From Methylophaga frappieri (GTDB taxonomy: Bacteria; Pseudomonadota; Gammaproteobacteria; Nitrosococcales; Methylophagaceae), in assembly GCF_000260965.1 (NCBI RefSeq), contig NC_017856.1:390001-422000 (forward strand): a DNA stretch of 32,000 nt, written 5' to 3'. The number at the start of each line of letters is the position of its first letter. Within the stretch, counting starts at the first letter, position 1. The position numbers and the translations under genes were made by a program. The notes under the pieces were generated by a model that was not told the DNA's origin, did no database searches, and saw only the letters and a program-made list of their open reading frames with translations. Shown here in pieces: positions 1 through 24,301 of the stretch.

Positions 1-218
1 TCGGCACACCGCTACTCACCGAGCAATGTCACACCAGTTTGGGTGATCTGCATTACATGATTTCACAAACGCCCCAAGTGTGGCTCGACCATCAACTTTA
101 TGAAATGCATGATGGTTTGTTGCTTGCCTGGGATGCAGTCGATGCCTTGTTTCCTGCACAATTAATTGACGACATGTTCAGTGCCTATACGAACCTTCTC
201 GAATGGTTAGCCGCTGAT
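1..218 (+). other. C-terminal part of a heterocyclization (Cy) domain
   Basis: SQTPQVWLDHQLYE...WDAVDALFP...DDMFSAYTNLL parallels the C-terminal ends of the two complete Cy domains downstream. Confidence 0.85.
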
Positions 219-3200
219 CGTCAGCATTGGCAACAAATACCGCCAGAATTAATGCCTGCTTATCAATTAACCACCCGCGAAGCAGTCAACCAAACCCAAG
301 CCCCCATAATCGACCGGGTGTTGCATCAAGGTGTGTTTGAACACGCCAAACGCTCAGCAGACAAGGTAGCCCTTATCTCAGACAATGCGTCTGTCACTTA
401 CGCTGCATTGGCCGATAAAGCCCTGCGTATCGCCCGTCTGTTACACGATAACGGTCTGCAATCCGGTGATCCCGTGGCAGTCACATTGCCAAGAGGCATT
501 GACCAGATTGCCGCTGTATTGGGTATTTTGGCCGCAGGCGGTTGTTATGTGCCTGTCGGTATTCATCAACCCGCTGCTCGGCAGGCCAAAATCCATCACA
601 CCGCTGGCATAAAACTAGTGTTAACGGCTTCCGATTATCTTGAGGTGGAGACCCTGGCCTCGGTCACGCGATTGGATGTGGCGCTAGCCCGTTCACTGTC
701 GCCTTTGGCTGAACCGGTTTCGGTCTCGCCGCAGCAGGCGGCGTATATCATCTTTACTTCCGGTTCGACCGGTGAGCCTAAAGGTGTGGAGATGGCCCAT
801 GCGGCTACCGCCAATACCATTGACCATTTAAATCAGCGTTATCAGGTGGGACAGCATAGTACAGGCCTTGCCATCTCGGCGCTCGATTTCGATTTGTCGG
901 TCTACGATATCTTTGGCTTGTTACAGGTCGGTGGCGCGCTGGTGTTGGTAGATGAGTCTCAACGGCGGGATGCAAATGCCTGGTTGAGTTTGATTCATCA
1001 ACATCAGGTCACGCTCTGGAATAGTGTGCCGGTGTTGTTGGATATGTTGTTGGTGGTCGCACAGAACGATAGCCGTCAATTGCCGTTTGAGCAGGTGATG
1101 TTGTCGGGCGATTGGATTGGTTTGGATTTACCGCCTCGCCTATTGGCCACGACCCAAACGATGCCGGCATTTATTGCGATGGGCGGTGCCACGGAAGCGG
1201 CGATTTGGTCGAATGTGTTTGAGGTGAATACGGCGATGGAAGATGGCCACTTGCCTTCGCAGTGGACGTCAATTCCCTATGGGAAGCCGTTAGCCAATCA
1301 GGCTTATCGCGTGGTCGATAGTTTGGGACGTGATTGTCCGGACTGGGTGCCGGGTGAGTTATGGATTGGTGGCCTCGGTTTGGCTAACGGCTATCGCGGT
1401 GATGCGACGCTGACGGCAGAGCGGTTTGTTGAGGTGGCGGGCAAGCGTTGGTATCGCACGGGTGACCGGGGCCGTTATTGGCCTGATGGCAATCTGGAGT
1501 TTTTAGGTCGGATTGACCATCAGGTGAAAGTACGTGGTCACCGGATTGAGTTAGGTGAAATCGATGCGGCGATGGCGACACTCCCCGAGATTGCCAGAGC
1601 GGTGGCGGTAACAGTAGGACAGCCGCCGGCATTAGCGGCCGCGTTTGTGGCAAAAGCCTCTAACTCGCTCGATACGGATGCCATTCGACAGGCGTTACAG
1701 CAAATCTTACCGGATTATATGGTACCGCCTACTTTGGTGCAGATGGCGGATTTACCGCTCAGTGCCAATGGCAAGCTCGATAGAAAACAGCTCGCCGCTC
1801 TGCTTGTGGAGCAGGTCGCAACCACCGAACACATCATCACGCCACCACAGACCACAGCAGAAAAAGTGGTCGCTGAACTGTGGCAGTCATTACTCGGGAT
1901 TGCGTCGGTTGGAAGAGAAAGTAATTTCTTTACTTTAGGTGGTGATAGTTTATTGGCCACACAGGTGGTGGCACAGTTAAGACAGCAAGGCTTGAGTGCT
2001 TCTCAGCCGTTACGTTTGTTGTTTGCCAAACCGGTGTTGATGGATTTCGCTGCTGAGTTAGCGGAAACCACGCAGGCGAAAACGGTAAAGGTGGTGGCCG
2101 AACCGCAGCAGCGTCATGAGCCGTTCCCGTTAACGGAAATCCAGCGCGCTTACTGGATGGGACAATCACCGGGGCTGCCGCTCAGTTGTGGTACGCATTA
2201 TCTGGTCGAACTCGATGGTGAGCAGGTCGATTTAGAACGCATTGAGCGTGCATGGCAGAAACTCGTTGAGCGTCATGAGATGATGCGTGCTGTCGTCGAT
2301 GAAAATGGTATGCAACGCATTTTGCAGCAGGTTTCTCCCGTCCGCATCAGCCGTCATCAATTGGATGAGCAAGACAGTGCAGAAACCGCGCAAGCCGTGT
2401 TACATGAATTGTGGCATCAACAATCACAGCAACAGCGTCAACAACCTCAGCAGGATGCTGCTGTTCCCTATCAGCTCCATGCGGTTTTTTATGGTAAACA
2501 TCGCTGCCGACTGGGCATTAATTTCAATTATTTGACGCTGGATGGTTTCAGTATCAAGTTACTGCTAGAACAATTGGCCGATCTGTATCAAAATCCAAGC
2601 CGCGATCTGCCTGAACTGGCATTATCATTCCGCGATTACGTTAATCAAGTTCATTATGATGCTGTTGCAATCGACAAAGCGGAGAAATACTGGCGCAATC
2701 GACTTCAGGATTTGCCATTAGCCCCGGAATTACCGCTTGCCGTTGATCCGGAAACTCTGTCACATGTCGAATTTAAACGCCGTGAAGCGAAACTTGATGC
2801 AACCCGCTGGCAGGCGTTGAAAGAAAAAGCAAGAGCCCACCAAATCACGCCGTCTGTATTACTTTTGGTTGCTTACAGCCAGATCCTTCGCCGCTGGAGT
2901 GGCGGTGGCAATCATACGCTCAACCTGACCCTATTTGATCGTCAACCTGTGCATGCAGATATTAATCAGATATTGGGTGATTTTACCTCGTTGGCACCGG
3001 TGGCTTTTTGCCATGAAAATGGTAATACCTTGATCGATCAGGCTCGTGCGACACAACAAGAAATCGCCAGTGCACTGGAGCATCGTGAAATCTCTTCTAT
3101 CTGGATTCAGCGCGAACGCTCACATCAGATGAGTTTGACCTCAGCGGCATTGCCCGTTGTGTTCACCAGTACGTTAGGGCTCGGCAATGGTTTATTCGAA

Positions 3201-6200
3201 AATCCACCGGCCGGTTTCCCGGAAATGGTCGCCGGCGGTTTGTCGGAAACACCGCAAGTCTGGCTTGATCATCAATTATACGAATATCGTGGTGAGCTCG
3301 TTTTATCGTGGGATGCTGTAGAGGACTTATTCCCTGCGGGTTTACTCGATGACATGTTCCAGTCTTACCAACAACTGCTAAATGAGCTTATTACGCAAGA
3401 CTGGACACAACCCTTTAATTTTTGCTTACCCACAAACCAAGCCGCCACCCGCGAAGCAGTCAACCAAACCCAAGCCCCCATAATCGACCGGGTGTTGCAT
3501 CAAGGTGTGTTTGAACACGCCAAACGCTCAGCAGACAAGGTAGCCCTTATCTCAGACAATGCGTCTGTCACTTACGCTGCATTGGCCGATAAAGCCCTGC
3601 GTATCGCCCGTCTGTTACACGATAACGGTCTGCAATCCGGTGATCCCGTGGCAGTCACATTGCCAAGAGGCATTGACCAGATTGCCGCTGTATTGGGTAT
3701 TTTGGCCGCAGGCGGTTGTTATGTGCCTGTCGGTATTCATCAACCCGCTGCTCGGCAGGCCAAAATCCATCACACCGCTGGCATAAAACTAGTGTTAACG
3801 GCTTCCGATTATCTTGAGGTGGAGACCCTGGCCTCGGTCACGCGATTGGATGTGGCGCTAGCCCGTTCACTGTCGCCTTTGGCTGAACCGGTTTCGGTCT
3901 CGCCGCAGCAGGCGGCGTATATCATCTTTACTTCCGGTTCGACCGGTGAGCCTAAAGGTGTGGAGATGGCCCATGCGGCTACCGCCAATACCATTGACCA
4001 TTTAAATCAGCGTTATCAGGTGGGACAGCATAGTACAGGCCTTGCCATCTCGGCGCTCGATTTCGATTTGTCGGTCTACGATATCTTTGGCTTGTTACAG
4101 GTCGGTGGCGCGCTGGTGTTGGTAGATGAGTCTCAACGGCGGGATGCAAATGCCTGGTTGAGTTTGATTCATCAACATCAGGTCACGCTCTGGAATAGTG
4201 TGCCGGTGTTGTTGGATATGTTGTTGGTGGTCGCACAGAACGATAGCCGTCAATTGCCGTTTGAGCAGGTGATGTTGTCGGGCGATTGGATTGGTTTGGA
4301 TTTACCGCCTCGCCTATTGGCCACGACCCAAACGATGCCGGCATTTATTGCGATGGGCGGTGCCACGGAAGCGGCGATTTGGTCGAATGTGTTTGAGGTG
4401 AATACGGCGATGGAAGATGGCCACTTGCCTTCGCAGTGGACGTCAATTCCCTATGGGAAGCCGTTAGCCAATCAGGCTTATCGCGTGGTCGATAGTTTGG
4501 GACGTGATTGTCCGGACTGGGTGCCGGGTGAGTTATGGATTGGTGGCCTCGGTTTGGCTAACGGCTATCGCGGTGATGCGACGCTGACGGCAGAGCGGTT
4601 TGTTGAGGTGGCGGGCAAGCGTTGGTATCGCACGGGTGACCGGGGCCGTTATTGGCCTGATGGCAATCTGGAGTTTTTAGGTCGGATTGACCATCAGGTG
4701 AAAGTACGTGGTCACCGGATTGAGTTAGGTGAAATCGATGCGGCGATGGCGACACTCCCCGAGATTGCCAGAGCGGTGGCGGTAACAGTAGGACAGCCGC
4801 CGGCATTAGCGGCCGCGTTTGTGGCAAAAGCCTCTAACTCGCTCGATACGGATGCCATTCGACAGGCGTTACAGCAAATCTTACCGGATTATATGGTACC
4901 GCCTACTTTGGTGCAGATGGCGGATTTACCGCTCAGTGCCAATGGCAAGCTCGATAGAAAACAGCTCGCCGCTCTGCTTGTGGAGCAGGTCGCAACCACC
5001 GAACACATCATCACGCCACCACAGACCACAGCAGAAAAAGTGGTCGCTGAACTGTGGCAGTCATTACTCGGGATTGCGTCGGTTGGAAGAGAAAGTAATT
5101 TCTTTACTTTAGGTGGTGATAGTTTATTGGCCACACAGGTGGTGGCACAGTTAAGACAGCAAGGCTTGAGTGCTTCTCAGCCGTTACGTTTGTTGTTTGC
5201 CAAACCGGTGTTGATGGATTTCGCTGCTGAGTTAGCGGAAACCACGCAGGCGAAAACGGTAAAGGTGGTGGCCGAACCGCAGCAGCGTCATGAGCCGTTC
5301 CCGTTAACGGAAATCCAGCGCGCTTACTGGATGGGACAATCACCGGGGCTGCCGCTCAGTTGTGGTACGCATTATCTGGTCGAACTCGATGGTGAGCAGG
5401 TCGATTTAGAACGCATTGAGCGTGCATGGCAGAAACTCGTTCAGCGCCATGAGATGCTGAGGGTCAGGATTAACAACCAAGGTCAGCAGCAAATTCTGTC
5501 TGTCGAGCAAACACCAGCTCTGCAGCTTGTTCAAGGTAAGGCTGCTGATCTCAATTCAGCGAGAGCACGTATTCACTCCTGGTGGCAACATTATTCAGAG
5601 CATGACCGTGAGACGTTATTTGCCTTAAATGCTGTGAGCTACCTGGATCAGGCTGGACAACAACGTTATCGACTCGGTTTATTGTTCAGCTACATGACCT
5701 TGGACGGCTTTAGTATCAAGCTGTTGTTAAACGAACTTGCGACGCTATACAGTCAGCCAGAATCGTCATGGCCGACATTGACATTGTCTTTCCGTGATTA
5801 TGTCAATCAAGTACAACCCGATCCTCAAGCATTAGAGCGTGCCGAGCAATACTGGCATCAACGGTTGCCAGAACTGCCTTCGGCTGCTGCCCTGCCCTTG
5901 GCGAAAGATCCGCTTAATGTGGGGTCGGTACAGTTTTCTCGTCGGGAAGCTCGATTGGAGAAATCACGTTGGGCAGCCTTGCGCCAGTCAGCACAAACTC
6001 ATGGTATTACACCATCAGTTGCTATTCTGGTTGCTTATGCGGAAATTTTGAGTCAGTGGAGTGGTGGCCATGCCCATACTTTGAATTTGACCTTATTTGA
6101 TCGGCAGCCAGTTCATCAGGATATCGATAAAATCGTCGGTGATTTCACTTCACTGGCACCGGTTTCCTACTATCCAGATCAACAACAAACCTTATTAATG

Positions 6201-8468
6201 CAAGCCCAGCAAGTACAAAAAACGCTGGCTGAAGTATTGGAGCATCGCGAAGTCTCTTCTGTTTGGGTGCAACGTGAACGCGCCAGAACAATGGGGTTGA
6301 CGGCAGCAGCGCTGCCTATTGTCTTTACCAGCACGCTAGGCATGTCTGATAGTTTATTTGATGAACTACCGGCAGACGGTTTTCCTGATTTGGCCGGTGG
6401 CGGTTTATCCGAAACACCGCAAGTCTGGCTTGATCATCAGATGTATGAGCATCGTGGCGAACTGCTGATTTCCTGGGATGCAGTTGATGAACTGTTTCCG
6501 TCAGGATTGGTGGATGACATGTTCACTGCCTTTATTGATCTGCTACAGCGCTTGGCAGATAACTGGCACGAGCCTTTGCCGGTGGCGTTACCTGCAAACC
6601 AAGCTGCCACCCGCGAAGCAGTCAACCAAACCCAAGCCCCCATAATCGACCGGGTGTTGCATCAAGGTGTGTTTGAACACGCCAAACGCTCAGCAGACAA
6701 GGTAGCCCTTATCTCAGACAATGCGTCTGTCACTTACGCTGCATTGGCCGATAAAGCCCTGCGTATCGCCCGTCTGTTACACGATAACGGTCTGCAATCC
6801 GGTGATCCCGTGGCAGTCACATTGCCAAGAGGCATTGACCAGATTGCCGCTGTATTGGGTATTTTGGCCGCAGGCGGTTGTTATGTGCCTGTCGGTATTC
6901 ATCAACCCGCTGCTCGGCAGGCCAAAATCCATCACACCGCTGGCATAAAACTAGTGTTAACGGCTTCCGATTATCTTGAGGTGGAGACCCTGGCCTCGGT
7001 CACGCGATTGGATGTGGCGCTAGCCCGTTCACTGTCGCCTTTGGCTGAACCGGTTTCGGTCTCGCCGCAGCAGGCGGCGTATATCATCTTTACTTCCGGT
7101 TCGACCGGTGAGCCTAAAGGTGTGGAGATGGCCCATGCGGCTACCGCCAATACCATTGACCATTTAAATCAGCGTTATCAGGTGGGACAGCATAGTACAG
7201 GCCTTGCCATCTCGGCGCTCGATTTCGATTTGTCGGTCTACGATATCTTTGGCTTGTTACAGGTCGGTGGCGCGCTGGTGTTGGTAGATGAGTCTCAACG
7301 GCGGGATGCAAATGCCTGGTTGAGTTTGATTCATCAACATCAGGTCACGCTCTGGAATAGTGTGCCGGTGTTGTTGGATATGTTGTTGGTGGTCGCACAG
7401 AACGATAGCCGTCAATTGCCGTTTGAGCAGGTGATGTTGTCGGGCGATTGGATTGGTTTGGATTTACCGCCTCGCCTATTGGCCACGACCCAAACGATGC
7501 CGGCATTTATTGCGATGGGCGGTGCCACGGAAGCGGCGATTTGGTCGAATGTGTTTGAGGTGAATACGGCGATGGAAGATGGCCACTTGCCTTCGCAGTG
7601 GACGTCAATTCCCTATGGGAAGCCGTTAGCCAATCAGGCTTATCGCGTGGTCGATAGTTTGGGACGTGATTGTCCGGACTGGGTGCCGGGTGAGTTATGG
7701 ATTGGTGGCCTCGGTTTGGCTAACGGCTATCGCGGTGATGCGACGCTGACGGCAGAGCGGTTTGTTGAGGTGGCGGGCAAGCGTTGGTATCGCACGGGTG
7801 ACCGGGGCCGTTATTGGCCTGATGGCAATCTGGAGTTTTTAGGTCGGATTGACCATCAGGTGAAAGTACGTGGTCACCGGATTGAGTTAGGTGAAATCGA
7901 TGCGGCGATGGCGACACTCCCCGAGATTGCCAGAGCGGTGGCGGTAACAGTAGGACAGCCGCCGGCATTAGCGGCCGCGTTTGTGGCAAAAGCCTCTAAC
8001 TCGCTCGATACGGATGCCATTCGACAGGCGTTACAGCAAATCTTACCGGATTATATGGTACCGCCTACTTTGGTGCAGATGGCGGATTTACCGCTCAGTG
8101 CCAATGGCAAGCTCGATAGAAAACAGCTCGCCGCTCTGCTTGTGGAGCAGGTGATTGAGCAACAAACATACGAAGCACCTAAAGACCAGCTCGAACAACA
8201 AATCGCCGATGTCTGGTGTGAGGTCTTGCAATGTTGGCAGATTTCTCGTCATGACGATTTTTTCCAAATCGGTGGCGACAGTCTCACAGCAACTCAACTT
8301 GTACAGCAATTACAAACACGTCGAGTCAGCCCAGAAGCAATTTCATTACTTACCCTGTTCGGTTCGCCAACCATAGCCGGACTCGCAGATGAAATACGCC
8401 ACCAATGGCAAGCCATTGGCATTCAAACGAATAATGATGAATTAATTTTTGAAGAAGGAACGTTATGA
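1..8468 (+). CDS. Non-ribosomal peptide synthetase, 5'-truncated by the window edge; visible architecture (Cy)-A-T-Cy-A-T-Cy-A-T
   Basis: The frame of the 39..8468 ORF stays open back to nt 3. The residues upstream of the TTG at 39 (GTPLLTEQCHTS) continue a Cy domain, so the true start lies upstream of the window. Cy motifs: FPLTEIQRAYWMGQ, GDFTS, VVFTST, SETPQVWLDHQ. A motifs: AYIIFTSGSTGEPKG, YRTGDRGRY, GRIDHQVKVRGHRIELGEI, NGKLDRK. Carrier motifs: FFTLGGDS (twice) and FFQIGGDS. Stop TGA at 8466-8468. Confidence 0.97.
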   Translation, partial: GTPLLTEQCHTSLGDLHYMISQTPQVWLDHQLYEMHDGLLLAWDAVDALFPAQLIDDMFSAYTNLLEWLAADRQHWQQIPPELMPAYQLTTREAVNQTQAPIIDRVLHQGVFEHAKRSADKVALISDNASVTYAALADKALRIARLLHDNGLQSGDPVAVTLPRGIDQIAAVLGILAAGGCYVPVGIHQPAARQAKIHHTAGIKLVLTASDYLEVETLASVTRLDVALARSLSPLAEPVSVSPQQAAYIIFTSGSTGEPKGVEMAHAATANTIDHLNQRYQVGQHSTGLAISALDFDLSVYDIFGLLQVGGALVLVDESQRRDANAWLSLIHQHQVTLWNSVPVLLDMLLVVAQNDSRQLPFEQVMLSGDWIGLDLPPRLLATTQTMPAFIAMGGATEAAIWSNVFEVNTAMEDGHLPSQWTSIPYGKPLANQAYRVVDSLGRDCPDWVPGELWIGGLGLANGYRGDATLTAERFVEVAGKRWYRTGDRGRYWPDGNLEFLGRIDHQVKVRGHRIELGEIDAAMATLPEIARAVAVTVGQPPALAAAFVAKASNSLDTDAIRQALQQILPDYMVPPTLVQMADLPLSANGKLDRKQLAALLVEQVATTEHIITPPQTTAEKVVAELWQSLLGIASVGRESNFFTLGGDSLLATQVVAQLRQQGLSASQPLRLLFAKPVLMDFAAELAETTQAKTVKVVAEPQQRHEPFPLTEIQRAYWMGQSPGLPLSCGTHYLVELDGEQVDLERIERAWQKLVERHEMMRAVVDENGMQRILQQVSPVRISRHQLDEQDSAETAQAVLHELWHQQSQQQRQQPQQDAAVPYQLHAVFYGKHRCRLGINFNYLTLDGFSIKLLLEQLADLYQNPSRDLPELALSFRDYVNQVHYDAVAIDKAEKYWRNRLQDLPLAPELPLAVDPETLSHVEFKRREAKLDATRWQALKEKARAHQITPSVLLLVAYSQILRRWSGGGNHTLNLTLFDRQPVHADINQILGDFTSLAPVAFCHENGNTLIDQARATQQEIASALEHREISSIWIQRERSHQMSLTSAALPVVFTSTLGLGNGLFENPPAGFPEMVAGGLSETPQVWLDHQLYEYRGELVLSWDAVEDLFPAGLLDDMFQSYQQLLNELITQDWTQPFNFCLPTNQAATREAVNQTQAPIIDRVLHQGVFEHAKRSADKVALISDNASVTYAALADKALRIARLLHDNGLQSGDPVAVTLPRGIDQIAAVLGILAAGGCYVPVGIHQPAARQAKIHHTAGIKLVLTASDYLEVETLASVTRLDVALARSLSPLAEPVSVSPQQAAYIIFTSGSTGEPKGVEMAHAATANTIDHLNQRYQVGQHSTGLAISALDFDLSVYDIFGLLQVGGALVLVDESQRRDANAWLSLIHQHQVTLWNSVPVLLDMLLVVAQNDSRQLPFEQVMLSGDWIGLDLPPRLLATTQTMPAFIAMGGATEAAIWSNVFEVNTAMEDGHLPSQWTSIPYGKPLANQAYRVVDSLGRDCPDWVPGELWIGGLGLANGYRGDATLTAERFVEVAGKRWYRTGDRGRYWPDGNLEFLGRIDHQVKVRGHRIELGEIDAAMATLPEIARAVAVTVGQPPALAAAFVAKASNSLDTDAIRQALQQILPDYMVPPTLVQMADLPLSANGKLDRKQLAALLVEQVATTEHIITPPQTTAEKVVAELWQSLLGIASVGRESNFFTLGGDSLLATQVVAQLRQQGLSASQPLRLLFAKPVLMDFAAELAETTQAKTVKVVAEPQQRHEPFPLTEIQRAYWMGQSPGLPLSCGTHYLVELDGEQVDLERIERAWQKLVQRHEMLRVRINNQGQQQILSVEQTPALQLVQGKAADLNSARARIHSWWQHYSEHDRETLFALNAVSYLDQAGQQRYRLGLLFSYMTLDGFSIKLLLNELATLYSQPESSWPTLTLSFRDYVNQVQPDPQALERAEQYWHQRLPELPSAAALPLAKDPLNVGSVQFSRREARLEKSRWAALRQSAQTHGITPSVAILVAYAEILSQWSGGHAHTLNLTLFDRQPVHQDIDKIVGDFTSLAPVSYYPDQQQTLLMQAQQVQKTLAEVLEHREVSSVWVQRERARTMGLTAAALPIVFTSTLGMSDSLFDELPADGFPDLAGGGLSETPQVWLDHQMYEHRGELLISWDAVDELFPSGLVDDMFTAFIDLLQRLADNWHEPLPVALPANQAATREAVNQTQAPIIDRVLHQGVFEHAKRSADKVALISDNASVTYAALADKALRIARLLHDNGLQSGDPVAVTLPRGIDQIAAVLGILAAGGCYVPVGIHQPAARQAKIHHTAGIKLVLTASDYLEVETLASVTRLDVALARSLSPLAEPVSVSPQQAAYIIFTSGSTGEPKGVEMAHAATANTIDHLNQRYQVGQHSTGLAISALDFDLSVYDIFGLLQVGGALVLVDESQRRDANAWLSLIHQHQVTLWNSVPVLLDMLLVVAQNDSRQLPFEQVMLSGDWIGLDLPPRLLATTQTMPAFIAMGGATEAAIWSNVFEVNTAMEDGHLPSQWTSIPYGKPLANQAYRVVDSLGRDCPDWVPGELWIGGLGLANGYRGDATLTAERFVEVAGKRWYRTGDRGRYWPDGNLEFLGRIDHQVKVRGHRIELGEIDAAMATLPEIARAVAVTVGQPPALAAAFVAKASNSLDTDAIRQALQQILPDYMVPPTLVQMADLPLSANGKLDRKQLAALLVEQVIEQQTYEAPKDQLEQQIADVWCEVLQCWQISRHDDFFQIGGDSLTATQLVQQLQTRRVSPEAISLLTLFGSPTIAGLADEIRHQWQAIGIQTNNDELIFEEGTL
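318..1794 (+). other. Adenylation domain 1 (Cys-type signature)
   Basis: A3 FTSGSTGEPKG, A4 LDFDLSVYDIF, A5 AMGGATEAAIWSN, A7 YRTGDRG, A8 GRIDHQVKVRGHRIELGEI, A10 NGKLDRK. The specificity positions, read by eye, give D-L-Y-N-M-S-M-I-W-K. Confidence 0.9.
1854..2060 (+). other. Thiolation (PCP) domain 1
   Basis: AEKVVAELWQSLLGI...NFFTLGGDSLLATQVV; phosphopantetheinyl Ser codon at 1947-1949. Confidence 0.9.
2118..3392 (+). other. Heterocyclization (Cy) domain with non-canonical NxxxxDxxS core
   Basis: FPLTEIQRAYWMGQ, RHEMMRAV, NYLTLDGFS (2526-2552) in place of DxxxxDxxS, LPLAPELPL, TPSVLLLVAYSQILRRWS, LNLTLFDR, GDFTS, VVFTST, SETPQVWLDHQ. Confidence 0.9.
3492..4968 (+). other. Adenylation domain 2 (identical to A1)
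   Basis: Lies within repeat copy 2; identical translation to A1. Confidence 0.9.
5028..5234 (+). other. Thiolation (PCP) domain 2 (identical to T1)
   Basis: Lies within repeat copy 2; Ser codon at 5121-5123. Confidence 0.9.
5292..6560 (+). other. Heterocyclization (Cy) domain with non-canonical SxxxxDxxS core
   Basis: FPLTEIQRAYWMGQ, RHEMLRVRI, SYMTLDGFS (5688-5714), LNLTLFDR, GDFTS, IVFTST, SETPQVWLDHQ. Confidence 0.9.
6607..8152 (+). repeat. Intragenic direct repeat, copy 3 (A domain only)
   Basis: Offset 3162 nt from copy 2. Identity ends after ...gagcaggt (8152 = 1816 in copy 1), then diverges into a different T domain. Confidence 0.95.
6654..8130 (+). other. Adenylation domain 3 (identical to A1 and A2)
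   Basis: Lies within repeat copy 3; identical translation. Confidence 0.9.
8190..8396 (+). other. Thiolation (PCP) domain 3 (unrelated in sequence to T1/T2)
   Basis: LEQQIADVWCEVL...DDFFQIGGDSLTATQLV; Ser codon at 8280-8282. Confidence 0.88.
8430..8465 (+). other. C-terminal docking tail of the first NRPS
   Basis: The terminal peptide NNDELIFEEGTL is acidic and ends in EEGxL. This resembles the short tails that partner with TubC-type N-terminal docking domains. Confidence 0.5.
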
Positions 8469-8623
8469 GTATCGCTACTATCGTCTCGGATTTTGAAGCG
8501 CTTGGCGTTTATCTCTGGGCTGAACACGATCAGCTGAAGTTTAAGGCCCCGGCTGGTGTGTTAAGTGATGCGCATAAAGAAAAGCTAAAACACCATAAAG
8601 ATGAACTTATCGCCTTTCTAGCC
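8465..8623 (+). other. TubC_N-type (beta-hairpin) N-terminal docking domain
   Basis: MSIATIVSDFEALGVYLWAEHDQLKFKAPAGVLSDAHKEKLKHHKDELIAFL fits the pattern GV.LW.e.d.L.f.AP.G.L...l...L..hK.eL...L recalled for TubC/EpoB-type docking domains. Confidence 0.65.
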
Positions 8624-11600
8624 GATCCTGTCATCGACGGTATTCAGCCAGATTTAGAAAATCGTTACAGCCCTTTTCCTTTGACAGATTTACAACTGGC
8701 GTATCTGGTTGGCCGGACCAATGCCATCGAATATGGTGGTGTTGGCTGTCATAGTTATATTGAACTGGATATGGTTGCTGTCGATTTAGAAAAGCTGCAA
8801 ACAGCATGGCACAAACTCATTTCTCGCCACGAGATGTTGCGGGCACGTATAACTCAAAATGGTTACCAACAGATTTTACGTGATGTTTCCTCTCCCCCAG
8901 TAATACACCATGATTTTCGGCAACAACCTGCTGAAACGATCGAAAACAAGATGTTGGCATTAAGGGAACGCCTGGCCCACCGATGCTATCAACCTGATCA
9001 ATGGCCGCAGTATGAAATGCATTTAAGTAGCTATGATGAGGGCGCTGTTCTGCATTTTTCTATTGATTTGCTCATTGCAGATTTTGCCAGTATTCAAATT
9101 CTGCTCGCAGAACTTGGTGAACTCTACAACCATCCCCAGCGCGACTTGCCGAAATTAAGTATTTCTTATCGCGATGTTGTCTTGGCCAGAAAAGCCATTC
9201 AGGACAATCCGAAAGCGCTCACGCGTTATGAAAAACATAAAGCCTATTGGCTAAAGCGCCTTGAAACCATGCCAATGCCACCAGAACTGCCTATGGCTCG
9301 GCAATCACGCCGAACAAGTGAAATTCAGCAAGCAACTGTTACATTTAATCGATTACATTTCGAACTACCAGCCGATCAATGGCAATCACTAAGTCAGCAA
9401 GCTACGACAAAAAAAATTACCCCGTCCAGTGTTGTCTTGACAGCGTTTACAGAAACCCTGTCCCGCTGGTCTCGACACCAGGAGTTTTGCCTTAATCTGA
9501 CCATGCTGAATCGCTCCACGGCACACCCTGATATTCGTGGCCTGGTAGGTGACTTTATTGAAGTAAATGTCCTCGGCGTAACCCCCAACCCTGAGCATAG
9601 CTTTGCAGAACGCGCTGTGTCCATCCAGCAACGCCTGTGGCAGGATTTGGAGCACACTGACTTTTCAGGTATCGAAGTGCTACGCGAAATGAGCCGGCAA
9701 CAAGGCAGTAATGTCATTGTGCCAATTGTTTACACCAGTACAGTGGGTCTAAGCGGCGATCAATTAGATGCCAACGAATTTATGCATAATGCCAAACTCC
9801 GTTATGGCATTACCCAGACCCCTCAGGTATGGCTAGACTGCCAAGTTACCGAACGTAACGAGCAGTTATTAGTCGACTGGGATATCCGTAGTGATATTTT
9901 CAAAAGCGGAGTCATTGAGCAGGCTCATGGTGTTTTTTGCAAACTTCTGCAAGACCTGGCTAGTGATGCTGCTATCTGGCAATCAACACAGCCAATTTCA
10001 TTGCCAGAAGCCATGCAACACATTCGTGAAGAGACCAATAATACTGACGGCCGATTACCTGCAGAATTTCTCCATACGGGTTTTTGTCGCCAGGCTTTAA
10101 CCCGTCCTGATGCCGTTGCTGTTATCAGTGGTGATCGTCAAATTACCTATCATGATCTGGCCCGACAGGCTCTGACACTGCGGAGTTTCATGACCGACCA
10201 TGTCAATACCGGCGATCGGGTAGCCATTGTCATGGATAAAGGCGAAGACCAAATTGCTGCTGTATTGGCAGTACTGCTTGCGAATGCCACTTATGTACCG
10301 ATTGAGGGTGCGCAGCCTGTTGCGCGACGCAACACGATTCTTTCAGATGCCAATATTCAGGTTGTGCTCACCGATAACAGTCGCCTTGATTCTAATTGGC
10401 CAGCAAATACCACGGTTATTATTGTAGATAAGATTGACGCCTTGCCTGATAGCGAAACAACACGACAGATTTTGAATAATACCCTTGTAGATCATCAAGA
10501 TACATTTCGTAAAAACACAAACCGTATTGGTTACATTATTTACACCTCAGGTACAACGGGACGCCCCAAAGGGGTGATGATGTCACACCGAGCGGCTCTG
10601 AATACCGTCGCAGACATCAATGATCGGTTTAATATCAGCGAGATAGACAATGTATTAGGCTTGGTCAGTTTTGCTTTTGACCTGTCAATCTGGGATATAT
10701 TTGGCACCCTTGGTGCTGGCGCAACGCTCGTTCTGCCTGACGCGGATAAGCGTGCTGATCCTGCGCACTGGGCTCAGGTCATGTCATCTCATGCCGTGAC
10801 GGTATGGAACTCTGTCCCGGCACAATTGCAAATGCTAACAACGCAATTGGAATGGCAATCTGACGCTAATCTGAATCCATTACGACTGGCTATGTTGTCA
10901 GGAGACTGGATTCCTATATCTTTGCCGGATGCAGCGCGCAAGCACTTACCGCAACTGCAGGTTGTCAGTCTGGGCGGCCCAACTGAAACCGCGATTTGGT
11001 GTGTTAGCCATCTGATTGGTGAAGTACCCGACAATGCCTACAGTATCCCCTATGGTAAACCCCTGACAAATCACCAGATTCATATTCTTAACACACGACT
11101 GGAGCCTTGCCCTGATTGGGTTACCGGTGAAATGTATATTGGTGGTGCAGGTTTGGCGGCAGGTTACGCTGGTGACTCAGAGCAAACCAAGGCGCGCTTT
11201 ATCTATCATCCAGACACGGGCCAATGTTTATACCGATCAGGTGACCTCGGGCGTTATCGCCCAGATGGCATCATAGAAATTCAAGGACGTGACGATGGCC
11301 AAGTCAAAATTCATGGTCAACGTATTGAGCTTGGCGAAGTAGAAGCGGTCATTTGCAGCCATGAGGGTGTTCGTAGTGCTGCGGTCGTCTGTATCGGCTC
11401 CCCGGCACTGTTAGCGGCAGCAGTTGTACCCGATGAAACATCACCACTGCAGAATTCAAGTCTGGTAAACGAATTAAATCACTTTTTAACCGAGCGCCTG
11501 CCCGGTTATATGATTCCAGCTAATTTAATGATAATGCCGTCATTACCGTTGAGTAGCAATGGCAAGCTGGATCGAAAAACATTGCAAAAAACCTTATCAG

Positions 11601-13024
11601 AAAATAAGAACCATCAGGCAGATTTTGAAGCGCCTCTTGAGACACCGTTAGAGCAAAATGTCGCTCGAATTTGGCGTGAGTTACTAAACATCGAAACGCT
11701 GTCACGTCATGATGATTTTTTCAGTATCGGTGGTTCCAGCCTGACGGCTATCAATCTGCTGAGCGCTTTCCTCGCCGAAGGTTATCCAGCAGATATTGAT
11801 CTGATCTTTAATAATCCAACGTTCAGTGCCATGGTGTTTGCGCTGGAACAATCCAATGCCGCAAAAACTGAATGGTTAGATAGTATTGACCTGTCCAAAA
11901 TGGCGAGTCATGCAATGGCTGGTCTGAAAGATGCTCAGCCTTACGAGGCAACATCATCCATTAAAACTATCTTATTAACCGGTGCGAGTGGCTATCTTGG
12001 CAGTTATTTACTGAACCGCTTATTACGCGATACCGATTATCACCTTTATTGTTTACTACGTTGTGATGACCCGGAACATGGCATTGAACGTCTAATTCAT
12101 TCTGCAGCAGAAAAAGGCTTGAATATTGAACTCAATACCTCACGCCTTACTATTCTGCCTGGCGAGCTATCAGAACCAAAATTCGGCCTGAGTGATACAG
12201 CGTATCAGCATCTTGCTGAAAACGTTGATGTAGTAATCCATAATGCCTCGATTATTAACTTGATGGATCCCCTTTCCGGACTATATCCAACCAATGTTGA
12301 GGGGGTCAGCCATATTTTATCGCTGGCAAGTACAACGAAAATCAAGCCGATTCACTACATTTCCACCATTGGTGTTCATCATGCCTTACCAGAAGATACT
12401 GCACAGCCGGTATTAGAGCACACACCGGTCATGCACTGGCGACCCGTTACGCTGACTTATGAGCAGTCAAAAATCATGGCGGAAACCTTGTTTGGCTATG
12501 CACGTGAACACGGCATGCCCGTTAACATCCTGCGTCCGGGTACGATTACCTGGGATACCGGCGAAAAACCGTTTATTAATGATGATGCCTTCTTGAAGTT
12601 TTATCGGGCGTGTCTTGCCATCAAGTCCTATCCCGCTTCATCACTTGCCGTCAACATTGTTCCTGTAGATTATGTGGCGGATTGTATTGTTGCCATTACA
12701 CTGAGTAAAACCGGCAAAAGCGAGAATTTTCACCTGGTTTCTGAACAAAGCACACCTGTTGAAACGGTATATCAATGGTGTAATGAGCTTGGCTGTTCGA
12801 TCATGGCTAACAGTTTCAAGGACTGGAAAAACGCGTTGGATGATAACTTTATTCTGGGTTTCGTCAATCTGTATTTCGGCGATGACATGGATAATGGCGG
12901 GCATCATCAATACAGCACAGAAAACTTGCAGCAAGTTACTGCCAGCCATGGTATTGAGAGCTTTAGCGTTACCAAGGGTTACCTGAAATCATTAACAGAT
13001 CAATTTCACAATGCTGATGCGTGA
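8465..13024 (+). CDS. Terminal NRPS: docking domain-Cy-A-T-R (thioester reductase)
   Basis: The ATG overlaps the upstream stop (ATGA at 8465-8468). Cy motifs: FPLTDLQLAYLVGR, RHEMLRARI, canonical DLLIADFAS (9065-9091), LNLTMLNR, GDFIE, IVYTSTVG, TQTPQVWLDCQ. A motifs: YIIYTSGTTGRPKG, FAFDLSIWDIF, SLGGPTETAIWC, YRSGDLGRY, GRDDGQVKIHGQRIELGEVE, SNGKLDRK. T motif: FFSIGGSSL. R motifs: LLTGASGYLGSYLL and YEQSK. Confidence 0.96.
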   Translation: MSIATIVSDFEALGVYLWAEHDQLKFKAPAGVLSDAHKEKLKHHKDELIAFLADPVIDGIQPDLENRYSPFPLTDLQLAYLVGRTNAIEYGGVGCHSYIELDMVAVDLEKLQTAWHKLISRHEMLRARITQNGYQQILRDVSSPPVIHHDFRQQPAETIENKMLALRERLAHRCYQPDQWPQYEMHLSSYDEGAVLHFSIDLLIADFASIQILLAELGELYNHPQRDLPKLSISYRDVVLARKAIQDNPKALTRYEKHKAYWLKRLETMPMPPELPMARQSRRTSEIQQATVTFNRLHFELPADQWQSLSQQATTKKITPSSVVLTAFTETLSRWSRHQEFCLNLTMLNRSTAHPDIRGLVGDFIEVNVLGVTPNPEHSFAERAVSIQQRLWQDLEHTDFSGIEVLREMSRQQGSNVIVPIVYTSTVGLSGDQLDANEFMHNAKLRYGITQTPQVWLDCQVTERNEQLLVDWDIRSDIFKSGVIEQAHGVFCKLLQDLASDAAIWQSTQPISLPEAMQHIREETNNTDGRLPAEFLHTGFCRQALTRPDAVAVISGDRQITYHDLARQALTLRSFMTDHVNTGDRVAIVMDKGEDQIAAVLAVLLANATYVPIEGAQPVARRNTILSDANIQVVLTDNSRLDSNWPANTTVIIVDKIDALPDSETTRQILNNTLVDHQDTFRKNTNRIGYIIYTSGTTGRPKGVMMSHRAALNTVADINDRFNISEIDNVLGLVSFAFDLSIWDIFGTLGAGATLVLPDADKRADPAHWAQVMSSHAVTVWNSVPAQLQMLTTQLEWQSDANLNPLRLAMLSGDWIPISLPDAARKHLPQLQVVSLGGPTETAIWCVSHLIGEVPDNAYSIPYGKPLTNHQIHILNTRLEPCPDWVTGEMYIGGAGLAAGYAGDSEQTKARFIYHPDTGQCLYRSGDLGRYRPDGIIEIQGRDDGQVKIHGQRIELGEVEAVICSHEGVRSAAVVCIGSPALLAAAVVPDETSPLQNSSLVNELNHFLTERLPGYMIPANLMIMPSLPLSSNGKLDRKTLQKTLSENKNHQADFEAPLETPLEQNVARIWRELLNIETLSRHDDFFSIGGSSLTAINLLSAFLAEGYPADIDLIFNNPTFSAMVFALEQSNAAKTEWLDSIDLSKMASHAMAGLKDAQPYEATSSIKTILLTGASGYLGSYLLNRLLRDTDYHLYCLLRCDDPEHGIERLIHSAAEKGLNIELNTSRLTILPGELSEPKFGLSDTAYQHLAENVDVVIHNASIINLMDPLSGLYPTNVEGVSHILSLASTTKIKPIHYISTIGVHHALPEDTAQPVLEHTPVMHWRPVTLTYEQSKIMAETLFGYAREHGMPVNILRPGTITWDTGEKPFINDDAFLKFYRACLAIKSYPASSLAVNIVPVDYVADCIVAITLSKTGKSENFHLVSEQSTPVETVYQWCNELGCSIMANSFKDWKNALDDNFILGFVNLYFGDDMDNGGHHQYSTENLQQVTASHGIESFSVTKGYLKSLTDQFHNADA
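8666..9965 (+). other. Heterocyclization (Cy) domain, canonical DxxxxDxxS
   Basis: See the motifs listed for the terminal NRPS CDS. Confidence 0.9.
10067..11584 (+). other. Adenylation domain 4 (Cys-like but distinct signature)
   Basis: Specificity positions read by eye give D-L-W-N-M-S-L-I-W-K. There is no insertion between A8 and A9, so no embedded methyltransferase. Confidence 0.85.
11648..11848 (+). other. Thiolation (PCP) domain 4
   Basis: LEQNVARIWRELL...DDFFSIGGSSLTAINLL; Ser codon at 11738-11740. Confidence 0.88.
11963..13021 (+). other. Terminal thioester reductase (SDR-type R) domain
   Basis: NAD(P)-binding TGASGYLG and the catalytic YEQSK (YxxxK). About 350 aa located after the last T domain. 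Confidence 0.88.
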
Positions 13025-13080: not shown

Positions 13081-13896
13081 ATGTTTACTGAATCTGTCGC
13101 GTTGCGACCTGCGATCCAGTCTGTTGCCGAGAAGTGGTTTCGCATTTATCAGGCTCGACCCGGTGCTAGCCAGCGTATTATTTTGCTGCCACATGCTGGT
13201 GGCTCTGCCAGTTTCTTCAGGCATTGGAGCACCGCCTTTCCAGATTCCATAGAAGTGGTTTCAGTTCAGTATCCTGGCCGGGAAGCGCGTATTAATGATG
13301 CTTTGATTGATTCCATGCCCGAGCTGGTAGCCCAGTTAAGTGAAGGCTTGGAAGAAGTACTGGACAAACCTTATGTGCTTTTCGGTCACAGTATGGGTGG
13401 GGCCGTCGCTTACGAATTGTATCTGGCACTGCTGCGTCAAAAATTACCCTTACCAACGCATTTAGTGATTTCTGCTATTGAAGCCCCAACGCGCCGTCAT
13501 GTTGGCGATTTACACAAGCAAAGTGATAAAGCCTTGATGACTGAGTTAAAAAAACTTGATGGTTCCCAAGTCAATCTGGCGGACTACCCGGAACTGGCAG
13601 AAATTGTATTGCCATTAATGCGTAACGATTATCAATTGATAGAGACCTATCAACCTGTGCTGCCAACAACGCCGCTTAACTGCCCGATTACTGTCATGAC
13701 TGGTGATTCCGATACAGAGTTAAATCCAGGCGATGCAGATGCCTGGCAGGCAGAGACAACAGCCAACTTCAGACTACTCAGTTTTAAAGGCGGTCATTTT
13801 TATCTAAGGCCAGAGCAACAAGCGGTTGTTCGCGCCTTGACCAAAATTTGTCATCAGACACAAGGCGCTGGTTCACGTCAGCTTTATCTGCCCTGA
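13081..13896 (+). CDS. Type II (editing) thioesterase
   Basis: 271 aa. LLPHAGGSASFF, nucleophile elbow GHSMGG, C-terminal GGHFYL. GAGGA RBS about 10 nt upstream. Confidence 0.88.
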   Translation: MFTESVALRPAIQSVAEKWFRIYQARPGASQRIILLPHAGGSASFFRHWSTAFPDSIEVVSVQYPGREARINDALIDSMPELVAQLSEGLEEVLDKPYVLFGHSMGGAVAYELYLALLRQKLPLPTHLVISAIEAPTRRHVGDLHKQSDKALMTELKKLDGSQVNLADYPELAEIVLPLMRNDYQLIETYQPVLPTTPLNCPITVMTGDSDTELNPGDADAWQAETTANFRLLSFKGGHFYLRPEQQAVVRALTKICHQTQGAGSRQLYLP

Positions 13897-13997: not shown

Positions 13998-14957
13998 ATG
14001 CGTTTATCCAAGGCCATATTGCTATCCGTGATGCCCTTGTGGTTTAGTCTCTCCGCGCATAGTGCCGACTACCCGTTGACCATTACCGATGATCGGGGCA
14101 AACAGGTGACCTTTAACGCCCAGCCAGAGTCGATTGCCTCTATCTCCGCATTTGGGGCTGATCTGTTGGCAGCACTGGGAAAACAGGCAACCGGTATGTC
14201 AACGCTGAATCATCAGCAGTCAGCTTTTCTGGGGGATACGATTAACGATATGGTTGATCTGGGGGAAATCCATGAAACCAATATGGAGTTACTCACCGAA
14301 CTTAATCCGGATCTGACCATTGGTATTCGTACCTATACCGAGCCATTTGAAAAAAAATTTGAAGAAATAGGCAAGTTTCTAGCTTTTGATCTGGTGACCT
14401 ATGCTGATTCGGTTGAAAGCGTCGAGGCTGTCAGCGCTGCACTCGGCGAAGCGGATAAAGGCAAACAACTGAATGCCGAGTTTGCTGACAGTTTGAAAGC
14501 CCATCAAGCGAAAGCGCCTGGTCGTCCCAGTGTGGTTTTTTTATGGCATTGGGCCGATGTACCTTATGGCTTTTATAATCATCATTTAACCATGGAAATC
14601 GTCTCTGCTTTACAGGCACATAACGCTATCGGCGACAGTCCACAACCCGATGTTCAGCCACTGGATTCCGCACCAGTTTCTATGGAAACCCTATTGCAGC
14701 TTGATCCGGACATTATCGTCTCCTTCAAAGGTGATGCCGGTCCAATCCAGAATCACCCTGTCTGGCATCGGTTAAGTGCGGTTAAAAATGGTCGTGCTTA
14801 TCGTGTCGGTGATCAATATGTCATGCCACACGGCCCCATTGCCCGGGATATGATTTTGCGTGAGCTGGCTTATCTGTTCTATCCGGATCACTTTCCAGAA
14901 CCGGCTGATATCCCTGCTGCTGCCCGTGCAACCGCAATGACTTTTACCGAGAATTAA
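13998..14957 (+). CDS. Periplasmic siderophore/iron-chelate substrate-binding protein (Peripla_BP_2, FecB/FhuD-like)
   Basis: Signal peptide MRLSKAILLSVMPLWFSLSAHSA. About 300-aa mature protein with the typical ...ESIASIS..GADLLAALG... N-lobe. AGGAG RBS. Immediately followed by FecCD permease genes. Confidence 0.82.
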   Translation: MRLSKAILLSVMPLWFSLSAHSADYPLTITDDRGKQVTFNAQPESIASISAFGADLLAALGKQATGMSTLNHQQSAFLGDTINDMVDLGEIHETNMELLTELNPDLTIGIRTYTEPFEKKFEEIGKFLAFDLVTYADSVESVEAVSAALGEADKGKQLNAEFADSLKAHQAKAPGRPSVVFLWHWADVPYGFYNHHLTMEIVSALQAHNAIGDSPQPDVQPLDSAPVSMETLLQLDPDIIVSFKGDAGPIQNHPVWHRLSAVKNGRAYRVGDQYVMPHGPIARDMILRELAYLFYPDHFPEPADIPAAARATAMTFTEN

Positions 14958-14981
14958 TCAAAGTCGATCCTAACGCTCATC

Positions 14982-22488: not shown

Positions 22489-22719
22489 GTGAGTGAGACA
22501 GCGCCCCTTAATAAACTGGAACTCGTTGACTATATTCGAACACTAGCCCCTTTTATTGAGCACATTGATGCACAGGATAATCTACTGGAAAGCGGGCTGG
22601 ATTCAATGCATATCCTGCAGTTGGTAAATTACTGCCGCGCCAAAGGCAGTAAAGTCACCTTTACTCAATTGATTGTCTCGCCCACGCTGGCCGACTGGCA
22701 AACCCTCATCTGCCAGTAA
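22489..22719 (+). CDS. Free-standing carrier protein, aryl-carrier (EntB/VibB C-terminal ArCP)-like
   Basis: 76 aa with a GTG start; CAGGA lies 9 nt upstream. DNLLESGLDSMHILQLVNY...VSPTLADWQTLI parallels my recollection of EntB ArCP (DNLIDYGLDSVRMMAL...NPTIDAWWKLL). Ser of GLDS is the likely Ppant site. Confidence 0.72.
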   Translation: MSETAPLNKLELVDYIRTLAPFIEHIDAQDNLLESGLDSMHILQLVNYCRAKGSKVTFTQLIVSPTLADWQTLICQ

Positions 22720-22773
22720 CAACGCCTTTCTTTTTCAGACTGACATCATTCACTTCAATTGACAGGCACAGCT

Positions 22774-24168: not shown

Positions 24169-24301
24169 ACGTTTTTTGCTTAATTTTTGTGAACTCTATC
24201 CAGAATGGGGCGGAAAAAACCCTTTATGGGTAGTGCCCACTAGCAGTGCACCGGAAAATGGGGATTACGTTATATCTCAAACAAAATGGAAATCAATTGA
24301 T

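Follow-up and report, generated by a model that had tools for sequence, protein, structure and literature searches.

Pyochelin of Pseudomonas aeruginosa (PchD/E/F/G) is assembled from a salicylate starter and two cysteines by nonribosomal peptide synthetases (NRPSs), in which an aryl carrier protein (ArCP) precedes heterocyclization (Cy), adenylation (A) and thiolation (T) domains. Mupirochelin (mch), sorangibactin (srb), bulbichelin and coelibactin combine salicylate with three or four consecutive heterocycles, including tandem thiazolidines (PMC10080011, PMC10127202, PMC13573596). The ulbactins of Pseudoalteromonas flavipulchra S16 also consist of salicylate and cysteine-derived thiazoline and thiazolidine rings. 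Here we describe a cluster of this kind in a 32,000-nt stretch of DNA from the marine methylotroph Methylophaga frappieri (the window), which holds most of the biosynthetic, export, uptake and regulation genes in intact form. We consider it probable that the product is a metallophore of the pyochelin/yersiniabactin/coelibactin/ulbactin class, capped by an aryl group, derived from cysteine and made by the mechanism proposed below.

The cluster shares with the pyochelin system the ArCP-Cy-A-T logic, a starter that is probably salicylate, a first Cy domain matching that of PchE with the VVFA(S/C) variant of motif Cy6, a type II thioesterase, a TonB receptor and an AraC regulator. It differs in having four cysteine modules instead of two, in lacking the epimerase insert and the N-methyltransferase, and in carrying a reductase (R) domain and saccharopine dehydrogenase (SDH)-like reductases in place of thioesterase (TE) release and PchG. 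Coelibactin-like clusters encode an oxidoreductase with a saccharopine dehydrogenase domain (MchE, SrbE), and M. frappieri has two such enzymes. The mupirochelin cluster has in addition TonB receptors, an AraC regulator and a pair made of an ATP-binding cassette (ABC) ATPase and a membrane protein, mchO/mchP, likened by annotation to a pair in the window (PMC10080011). The coelibactin-like lines nevertheless have fewer modules, some of them iterative, as opposed to four discrete ones, and they use an Irp3-type reductase, S-adenosylmethionine (SAM) methyltransferases, a P450 and a TE end, whereas the M. frappieri line ends in an R domain. No Irp3-like reductase, SAM methyltransferase or P450 was found in the window or in the related cluster of Pseudoalteromonas sp. 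NC201.

The cluster is a variant within the widely distributed aryl-thiazoline siderophore class and not a new kind of system, and its type of pathway has probably been partly characterized already in Pseudoalteromonas. An earlier note on the window had seen novelty in the series of Cy modules, on the ground that the pyochelin and yersiniabactin lines have at most two adjacent Cys heterocyclizations; coelibactin-type lines have three or four, and the same architecture is widespread. The likeness that it drew to thiangazole, tantazole and mirabazole is superficial only. The observation behind the note is nonetheless correct, far beyond chance, and its interpretation as a cysteine-rich, reductively released metallophore is right in outline, while it is wrong or incomplete on starter, ring oxidation state, novelty and cluster content.

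Domain organization of the two NRPS proteins

The assembly line is encoded by two open reading frames (ORFs), ORF1 and ORF2. The limits of the domains within ORF1 are approximate.

3-8468, plus strand: ORF1, truncated on the left by the window; residues 460-3280 of protein P0121 (3280 aa), 100% match (translation and Pfam)
3-260, plus strand: tail of Cy1
303-1805, plus strand: A1, code DLYNMSMIWK
1863-2075, plus strand: T1
2118-3425, plus strand: Cy2
3477-4979, plus strand: A2, code DLYNMSMIWK
5037-5249, plus strand: T2
5292-6590, plus strand: Cy3
6639-8141, plus strand: A3, code DLYNMSMIWK
8193-8405, plus strand: T3
8406-8465, plus strand: C-terminal docking tail of ORF1
8465-13024, plus strand: ORF2 (P0001, 1519 aa; 100% identical NCBI protein), TubC_N-Cy4-A4-T4-R by Pfam
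8471-8623, plus strand: TubC_N docking domain of ORF2
8669-9979, plus strand: Cy4, with canonical DLLIADFAS
10088-11584, plus strand: A4, code DLWNMSLIWK
11660-11836, plus strand: T4
11957-13021, plus strand: thioester reductase R, NAD_binding_4

The part of ORF1 in the window represents the C-terminal 2821 residues of a 3280-residue NRPS. Pfam detected in it three domains each of the types AMP-binding, AMP-binding_C and PP-binding, together with two full Condensation-type domains and, at the left edge, the last part of another; in full-length P0121, there were four PP-binding domains and three Condensation stretches. The 459 residues outside the window comprise an extra carrier domain at the N terminus (residues ~10-85, LGLDS motif), which is the ArCP, and the N-terminal part of Cy1. 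The full order is ArCP-Cy1-A1-T1-Cy2-A2-T2-Cy3-A3-T3 followed by a C-terminal docking tail, with the N-terminal ArCP and adjoining Cy domain typical of the family. As P0121 adds just the ArCP and the N terminus of Cy1, the line has exactly four modules and is primed by an aryl acid, and the ORF1 gene encodes no more modules. The starter unit and further modules had both been expected upstream; the aryl carrier is indeed there, but the 459 extra residues of P0121 contain no further module.

Frame 3 is open throughout positions 3-8468, and ORF2 is equally free of stops and frameshifts. The two genes overlap by 4 nt (ATGA) at 8465-8468. Pfam detected no oxidase (Ox), methyltransferase (MT), epimerization (E) or ketoreductase (KR) domain inside either protein, and the A domains are 501-504 residues long each and thus without insertion, which confirms the reading made by eye. 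The prediction of four consecutive Cy-A-T modules was likewise borne out by Pfam, the motifs and full P0121, and that of docking between the two proteins by the TubC_N domain at the start of ORF2.

The R domain sits right after the last carrier domain, matches NAD_binding_4 with E=8e-53, and carries TGASGYLG and YEQSK as its TGxxGxxG and catalytic YxxxK motifs. Its best solved relative is the reductase of MxaA from myxalamid synthesis (4u7w, E=5.6e-51), which has both motifs as well. MxaA is an alcohol-forming reductase that performs a four-electron reduction. It belongs to a hybrid of polyketide synthase and NRPS and reduces to the alcohol, whereas the R domain of M. frappieri may stop at the aldehyde. 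The domain match, the motifs and the similarity to MxaA agree with the reductive release proposed before.

Specificity of the adenylation domains

The A domains were aligned by MAFFT to residues 184-526 of GrsA, whose sequence was checked and is 100% identical to 1amu_A. All three A domains of ORF1 gave the code DLYNMSMIWK, exactly as read by eye in the earlier note. The same ten residues form the code of AngR of the anguibactin system (pJM1, Vibrio anguillarum), which was fetched and translated and is 49.7% identical over the A domain. AngR loads the cysteine from which the thiazoline of anguibactin arises. It differs from the M. frappieri line in being a single module, in its dihydroxybenzoate starter and in release onto N-hydroxyhistamine. 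The homologue of Pseudomonas matsuisoli has DLYNLSLIWK, which we take to be the canonical Cys code. A1 to A3 are thus predicted to be cysteine specific.

Cys-type specificity had been claimed for all four modules. The identity with AngR upholds it for modules 1 to 3; the code of A4, DLWNMSLIWK, is different and unmatched. Orthologues of A4 have DLWNMSQIWK in Pseudoalteromonas and DLLNFSLV(T/A)K in Oceanospirillum, Burkholderia, Marichromatium, Grimontia and Thauera. Judged by these residues, A4 forms a separate class of code that is conserved in its own subfamily. Because a canonical Cy domain precedes it, A4 likely activates cysteine too, and the last building block may differ between subfamilies. 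A second alignment that shifted position 331 by one residue was discarded for the motif-consistent ones. A match on a Klebsiella plasmid (H37), tried as a yersiniabactin reference, is not yersiniabactin, so HMWP2 was not used for the codes.

Heterocyclization domains

The condensation-type domains are Cy domains, with the motifs FPLTxxQxAY, (D/N/S)xxxxDxxS replacing HHxxxDG, VVFTS and TPQVWLD. Among solved Cy domains, Cy1 matched that of PchE best (E=2.5e-98 over 420 residues; PchE 103-521), followed by HMWP2, EpoB and BmdB. The DxxxxDxxS motif is canonical in Cy1 (DLLVADVQS) and Cy4 (DLLIADFAS), and it reads NYLTLDGFS in Cy2 and SYMTLDGFS in Cy3. TPQVWLD, a Cy motif of aryl-thiazoline siderophore NRPSs, is kept in all four domains.

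The first position of DxxxxD switches between D and N throughout the family, and S occurs in this Cy3 only. We considered that Cy2 and Cy3 might be inactive for want of the first Asp and rejected this, as substitution at that position recurs in the family. Cy1 has VVFAC, versus VVFTS in BmdB-type Cy domains. That Cy1 is inactive for want of the Thr was similarly rejected, since the functional PchE carries VVFAS.

Starter unit and related clusters

ORF1 and ORF2 have full-length homologues in many other proteobacterial genera (3224-3538 aa and 56-61% identity for ORF1, ~1505-1581 aa and 45-66% for ORF2), among them Pseudoalteromonas (luteoviolacea, piscicida, galatheae, tunicata), Oceanospirillum, Burkholderia, Janthinobacterium, Pseudomonas, Aquaspirillum, Entomomonas, Marichromatium, Thauera, Photobacterium, Enterovibrio and Grimontia. 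The gene order of the window recurs in the locus of Pseudoalteromonas sp. NC201, beginning with ORF1 and ending with the AraC gene, both oxidoreductases included, at 42-67% protein identity. Genomes of the P. piscicida group carry a syntenic cluster with two SDH-like genes. A scan of metagenome contigs by exact 40-mer gave no match.

In five of the related loci examined (L001, L006, L013, L082 and L003), genes for a salicylate synthase and an aryl-AMP ligase lie directly 5′ of the NRPS gene. They belong to Pseudoalteromonas luteoviolacea, Pseudoalteromonas sp. NC201, Grimontia, Enterovibrio and Brevibacillus, and four of the five are of the (Cy-A-T)3 type. Ligase and synthase are fused in NC201 and P. 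luteoviolacea and encoded by separate genes in Grimontia and Enterovibrio. These four loci also have a divergent ABC exporter pair upstream, together with a major facilitator superfamily gene in NC201. By synteny, the M. frappieri chain is probably salicylate capped.

Of the Brevibacillus loci listed, the one that matches the region ArCP-Cy1 best is that of Brevibacillus formosus (L003, 6936-20278). There, the fused ligase/salicylate synthase comes first, and ArCP-Cy-A(MT)-T-Cy-A(MT)-T (3023 aa) is followed directly by a 400-aa SDH-like oxidoreductase, with strong Fur-like boxes upstream. The Brevibacillus loci were rejected as direct orthologues on account of their different, two-module, MT-containing architecture.

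Probable relation to the ulbactin pathway

Gu et al. (2025, J Agric Food Chem 73:8352), as cited in PMC12819058, a 2026 paper from the same group, announce two novel thiazolinyl imine reductases in the ulbactin biosynthesis of P. flavipulchra S16. That producer is a marine gammaproteobacterium of the group with fully syntenic clusters. Its two reductases, non-classical as far as the citation tells, have their parallel in the window and in the Pseudoalteromonas cluster, each of which encodes two SDH-like enzymes and no Irp3/PchG. As the P. piscicida-group genomes carry a cluster with exactly two non-classical reductase candidates, the cluster in the window is likely, if unproven, to be the orthologue of the ulbactin-type pathway of P. 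flavipulchra. It differs from the P. piscicida/luteoviolacea clusters in having a second aryl carrier (ArCP2) and a condensation (C)-fold enzyme. Ulbactins D and F, read from their ring nomenclature (PMC9450019), are salicyl-thiazoline-thiazolidine-thiazolidine compounds with the third carboxyl lactamized onto the second ring nitrogen.

The main product might then be an ulbactin-D-like tricycle with three cysteines ([M+H]+ 380.056), freed from T3 by lactam formation, with ORF2 playing a minor part or yielding only a minor full-length congener. The ulbactin rings, as given by the IUPAC name (PMC9450019), require exactly modules 1 to 3 and two ring reductions, and ulbactin analogues were isolated from Pseudoalteromonas of the cluster-carrying group (PMC12819058). 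We nevertheless hold this unlikely. ORF2 is intact, its translation is coupled to that of ORF1, and across genera the two are strictly conserved together; it is hard to see why an unused 1519-aa enzyme would be conserved. Moreover, the summary of PMC12819058 speaks of a single analogue with strong iron chelation, which suggests that shunt products coexist with a genuine end product. The four-cysteine chain that uses both NRPS proteins is the reading that we develop here.

SDH-like enzymes and the oxidation state of the rings

Two genes for SDH-like enzymes lie between the receptor gene and the AraC gene.

26546-27667, plus strand: SDH-like NADP oxidoreductase 1, 373 aa (Pfam Sacchrp_dh_NADP; PDB 2axq, E=1.6e-8)
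27678-29588, plus strand: SDH-like NADP oxidoreductase 2, 636 aa (Pfam; profile match to 3abi, E=2e-5; 50% identical NC201 orthologue)

In NC201, the orthologue of the 373-aa enzyme is 51% identical and encoded at the equivalent position; the enzyme is also found in two related contigs (L084, L086). Residues 1-~364 of the 636-aa enzyme are a distant paralogue of the 373-aa family (hhalign, 97.5% probability). Its C-terminal ~270 aa (~28770-29588) gave a weak, sub-threshold ATC_hydrolase signal in two of four orthologues (best E=1.2e-4), and no sequence-level relative was found in the PDB. ATC_hydrolase is the family of L-2-amino-thiazoline-4-carboxylate hydrolase. The C-terminal part may be a thiazoline-binding domain.

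Neither the window nor the complete NC201 cluster with its flanks contained a thiazolinyl imine reductase of the PchG/Irp3 type. SDH-NADP proteins are a recurrent feature of those coelibactin-like clusters whose products have tandem thiazolidines (PMC10127202, PMC10080011); in the sorangibactin, mupirochelin and equibactin clusters, they are essential or conserved, and thiazolidines are made or predicted (PMC10127202, PMC10080011, PMC3672683). The sorangibactin protein is indispensable, its function still being called unknown in 2023 (PMC10127202). The two SDH-like enzymes are probably trans-acting thiazoline (cyclic imine) reductases that give thiazolidines. A mixed thiazoline/thiazolidine chain is more likely than an all-thiazoline one, because two conserved SDH-like enzymes are present, PchG/Irp3 is not, and the class recurs in thiazolidine-making coelibactin-like clusters. 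The tetra-thiazoline-type chain expected earlier is disfavored by these two conserved reductases.

Without ring reduction, the product would be an all-thiazoline tetra-heterocyclic aldehyde or alcohol (calculated [M+H]+ 463.039 or 465.054), and the SDH-like enzymes would act elsewhere. Their substrate might be the aldehyde after its release, or an imine derived from that aldehyde; saccharopine reductase chemistry, the reduction of an imine after aldehyde-amine condensation, would suit a released aldehyde. The NRPS itself contains no reductase or oxidase domain for ring chemistry, and the role of the SDH-NADP proteins in coelibactin-like clusters had not been settled as of 2023 (PMC10127202). 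Such a product seems improbable, given two conserved reductases next to no PchG/Irp3 homologue, the thiazolidines of the characterized relatives (PMC10080011) and the title of the 2025 ulbactin paper (cited in PMC12819058), which indicates that thiazolinyl imine reductases of a novel kind exist in Pseudoalteromonas.

A stand-alone aryl carrier and a free-standing condensation-fold enzyme

A further pair of genes, at 22489-24168, had escaped mention in the earlier note.

22489-22719, plus strand: ArCP2, stand-alone 76-aa aryl carrier protein (ORF list; serine in GLDSM)
22774-24168, plus strand: Q7C_395, free-standing condensation-fold acyltransferase, 464 aa, with invariant H130-x3-D134-G135

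ArCP2 is 42% identical to the ArCP of ORF1 over its whole length (E=2e-16), and in BLAST it matched the NC201 ArCP with E=3e-23 versus E>=0.002 for the peptidyl carrier protein domains of the same cluster. The 464-aa Q7C_395 has no Pfam family, and its homologues number only 17 among 5.8e9 proteins. Among 1.84e9 proteins, ~33 cluster representatives reached E<=1e-30, weaker matches being N-terminal halves of NRPS C domains, and a scan of metagenome contigs with a profile of the family returned one short contig. An AlphaFold2 model (pLDDT 88.8) gave as top Foldseek matches C domains, PapA5, SgcC5 and BAHD/TRI3 acyltransferases, with E down to 4e-16.

Orthologous genes for PP-binding proteins of 74-76 aa occupy the same place in three related contigs (L084, L086, L089). 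The pair of carrier and C-like protein stands at the same place in the clusters of P. tunicata, of a TARA scaffold and of the closest metagenomic relative of ORF2, and it is absent from P. luteoviolacea, NC201 and the P. piscicida/luteoviolacea-type clusters examined. It defines a Methylophaga/P. tunicata subfamily.

VibH, PapA5 and SgcC5 are free-standing C-fold enzymes that move a carrier-bound acyl group onto a free amine or alcohol. Q7C_395 has in common with them and with VibB-ArCP the C fold, the HxxxDG motif and a dedicated partner, an aryl-type carrier gene placed directly before it. Sequence identity to these enzymes is only 10-14%, and Q7C_395 belongs to a small family of its own. 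Taking VibB/VibH, PapA5 and SgcC5 as models, we speculate that Q7C_395 might move an aryl group from its carrier onto the released alcohol or onto a ring nitrogen. A more far-reaching version, which we regard as doubtful, is that the subfamily makes an undescribed scaffold: the released four-cysteine alcohol would be O- or N-acylated with a second salicylate to a bis-phenolate chelator (calculated [M+H]+ 589.107), thiazoline reductases would have a second family of independent evolutionary origin in the SDH-like enzymes, and the metal would perhaps not be iron.

Transport, regulation and metal

The other genes in this cluster are as follows.

13081-13896, plus strand: stand-alone type II thioesterase (Pfam Thioesterase, E=1.5e-42; same position in Pseudoalteromonas)
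13998-17880, plus strand: FecBCDE-type importer (Pfam Peripla_BP_2, two FecCD, ABC_tran; 50-58% identity to syntenic NC201 genes)
13998-14957, plus strand: periplasmic binding protein of the importer
14982-15989 and ~15986-17077, plus strand: FecCD permeases of the importer
~17074-17880, plus strand: ATPase of the importer
17907-18782, plus strand: DrrA-like ABC ATPase (Pfam/NCBIfam; 67% identity to the NC201 gene)
18798-22442, plus strand: 1214-aa membrane protein (ABC-2-type permease region N-terminally; 42% identity to the NC201 gene)
24137-26428, plus strand: TonB-dependent siderophore receptor (Pfam Plug and barrel; 52% identity to NC201)
29643-30569, minus strand: AraC-family regulator (NCBIfam AraC-type matches; 51% identical NC201 orthologue; on the opposite strand, at the right cluster border)

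By analogy with YbtT/PchC, the type II thioesterase would be an editing enzyme. The DrrA-like ATPase and the 1214-aa membrane protein probably form an exporter; the C-terminal ~600-680 aa of the latter matched no family in Pfam or NCBIfam, and the protein is absent from the TARA scaffold (L086). The receptor scored 220.6 bits with TIGR01783, just below the cutoff of 223.5. The position of the AraC gene matches that of PchR/YbtA-type regulators. Pfam and NCBIfam thus recovered every gene of the uptake and regulation context (TonB receptor, FecBCDE-like importer, AraC) that had been recognized before.

The right border of the cluster lies at ~30.6 kb, since an ettA-like housekeeping gene comes after the AraC gene. 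This gene, for an ABC-F (EttA-like) translation factor, starts at ~30900 and runs off the right window end at 32000. The small minus-strand ORFs listed at ~30900-32000 are antisense artifacts of it. The intergenic region 30643-30726, upstream of the AraC gene, contains the AT-rich palindrome AATATGATACAATATATCATAAA and a Fur-box-like site with 14/19 matches.

Going by the types of receptor and importer, iron would be the metal to assume by default. The compound could instead mainly acquire or detoxify another metal, such as zinc, copper or, in this methylotroph, a lanthanide. Its N- and S-rich thiazoline and thiazolidine ligands are soft donors, and the window has no strong Fur box. Among related compounds, coelibactin was described as a zincophore in work cited by PMC10127202, products of the piscibactin type bind not only Fe but also Cu and Ga (PMC9177418), and mupirochelin is described as a weak iron chelator (PMC10080011). 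Yet the receptor scores as a TonB-dependent siderophore receptor, the importer is of the FecBCDE type, the promoter of the homologous Grimontia operon has a Fur box with 16/19 matches, and a consensus scan of the window found no Zur-type box above 15/23, so that a main role with another metal appears quite unlikely. The Pseudoalteromonas promoters have no Fur box. We retain iron as the metal most in keeping with the transport genes.

Identity of the A(-T) units

Three copies of a repeat lie within ORF1.

255-2290, plus strand: repeat copy 1 (A1-T1-start of Cy2), 100% DNA identity to copy 2 by repeat search and base-by-base comparison in register
3429-5464, plus strand: repeat copy 2 (A2-T2-start of Cy3), ~2.03 kb identical to copy 1
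6591-~8140, plus strand: repeat copy 3 (A domain only), identical to the first ~1.55 kb of copy 1

The A domains are mutually near-identical elsewhere too, at 99-100% in Aquaspirillum, 100% in a metagenomic homologue and 93-97% in Janthinobacterium. Those of Pseudoalteromonas are only 63-72% identical to one another, and the Cy domains are 29-68% identical in all. This pattern suggests repeated gene conversion within the gene, limited to the A(-T) segment, and not an assembly error, although short-read assembly could mask a few differences between copies. Three contigs of related clusters (L084, L086 and L089) tend to stop inside or just before the ORF1 homologue, fitting assembly breaks at repeated A domains. 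That the units are collapsed or duplicated repeats and the true gene has another module number or is disrupted is highly improbable, for although exact repeats of 1.5-2 kb exceed short-read length and related metagenomic contigs break within ORF1, different Cy domains flank each copy in one continuous frame, homologues in about ten genera have equal length (3224-3291 aa) and three modules, and the independent near-identity in Aquaspirillum, the metagenomic homologue and Janthinobacterium points to real gene conversion.

Proposed pathway and significance

In the pathway that we propose, salicylate, made and adenylated by the products of genes just upstream, would be loaded onto the N-terminal ArCP of ORF1, a domain seen in P0121. 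Each of the modules Cy1-A1-T1, Cy2-A2-T2 and Cy3-A3-T3, whose domains and codes are present, would add and cyclodehydrate one cysteine. The chain would be handed over to ORF2 by the C-terminal tail and TubC-type docking pair, and Cy4-A4-T4 would add the fourth residue, probably cysteine. The two SDH-like enzymes would act in trans to reduce carrier-bound thiazolines to thiazolidines. Using NAD(P)H, the terminal R domain would free the chain as an aldehyde, possibly reduced on to the alcohol. The full-length product would be hydroxyphenyl-thiazoline-thiazolidine-thiazolidine-thiazoline-CH2OH/CHO, with calculated [M+H]+ of 469.086 or 467.070. Early self-release from T3 through lactamization could give tricycles of the ulbactin D type. 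In the M. frappieri subfamily, ArCP2 and the C-fold acyltransferase might, more speculatively, put another aryl group on the released molecule. The DrrA-type ATPase and the giant permease would export the product, the TonB receptor and the FecBCDE-type transporter would reimport the metal complex, and the AraC regulator would exert control.

Several points weigh against this assignment. The product is predicted here from the genes, and salicylate priming in M. frappieri itself rests on synteny with relatives. The first Asp of DxxxxD is absent from Cy2 (N) and Cy3 (S), and the code of A4 is identical to no reference cysteine code checked. Ulbactins D and F have three cysteines, not four, and the ulbactin cluster and its reductases are known to us through the citation in PMC12819058, from which we infer their correspondence with the window. 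Finally, the window, which does not extend to the main promoter, contains no convincing Fur box, and its best site (14/19 at 30708) lies upstream of the AraC gene.

The cluster leaves current thinking on how such systems work unchanged; the pyochelin/yersiniabactin logic is extended here to four discrete cysteine modules and reductive release. The SDH-like enzymes stand where a PchG/Irp3 reductase would be expected, in a class whose role in coelibactin-type clusters was open as recently as 2023. The rare pair of ArCP2 and Q7C_395 offers a concrete, testable handle on the acylation of a siderophore after its release. Lastly, the family, with its repeated and independent homogenization of the A domains alongside diverging Cy domains, provides a clean natural case of intragenic gene conversion in an NRPS.

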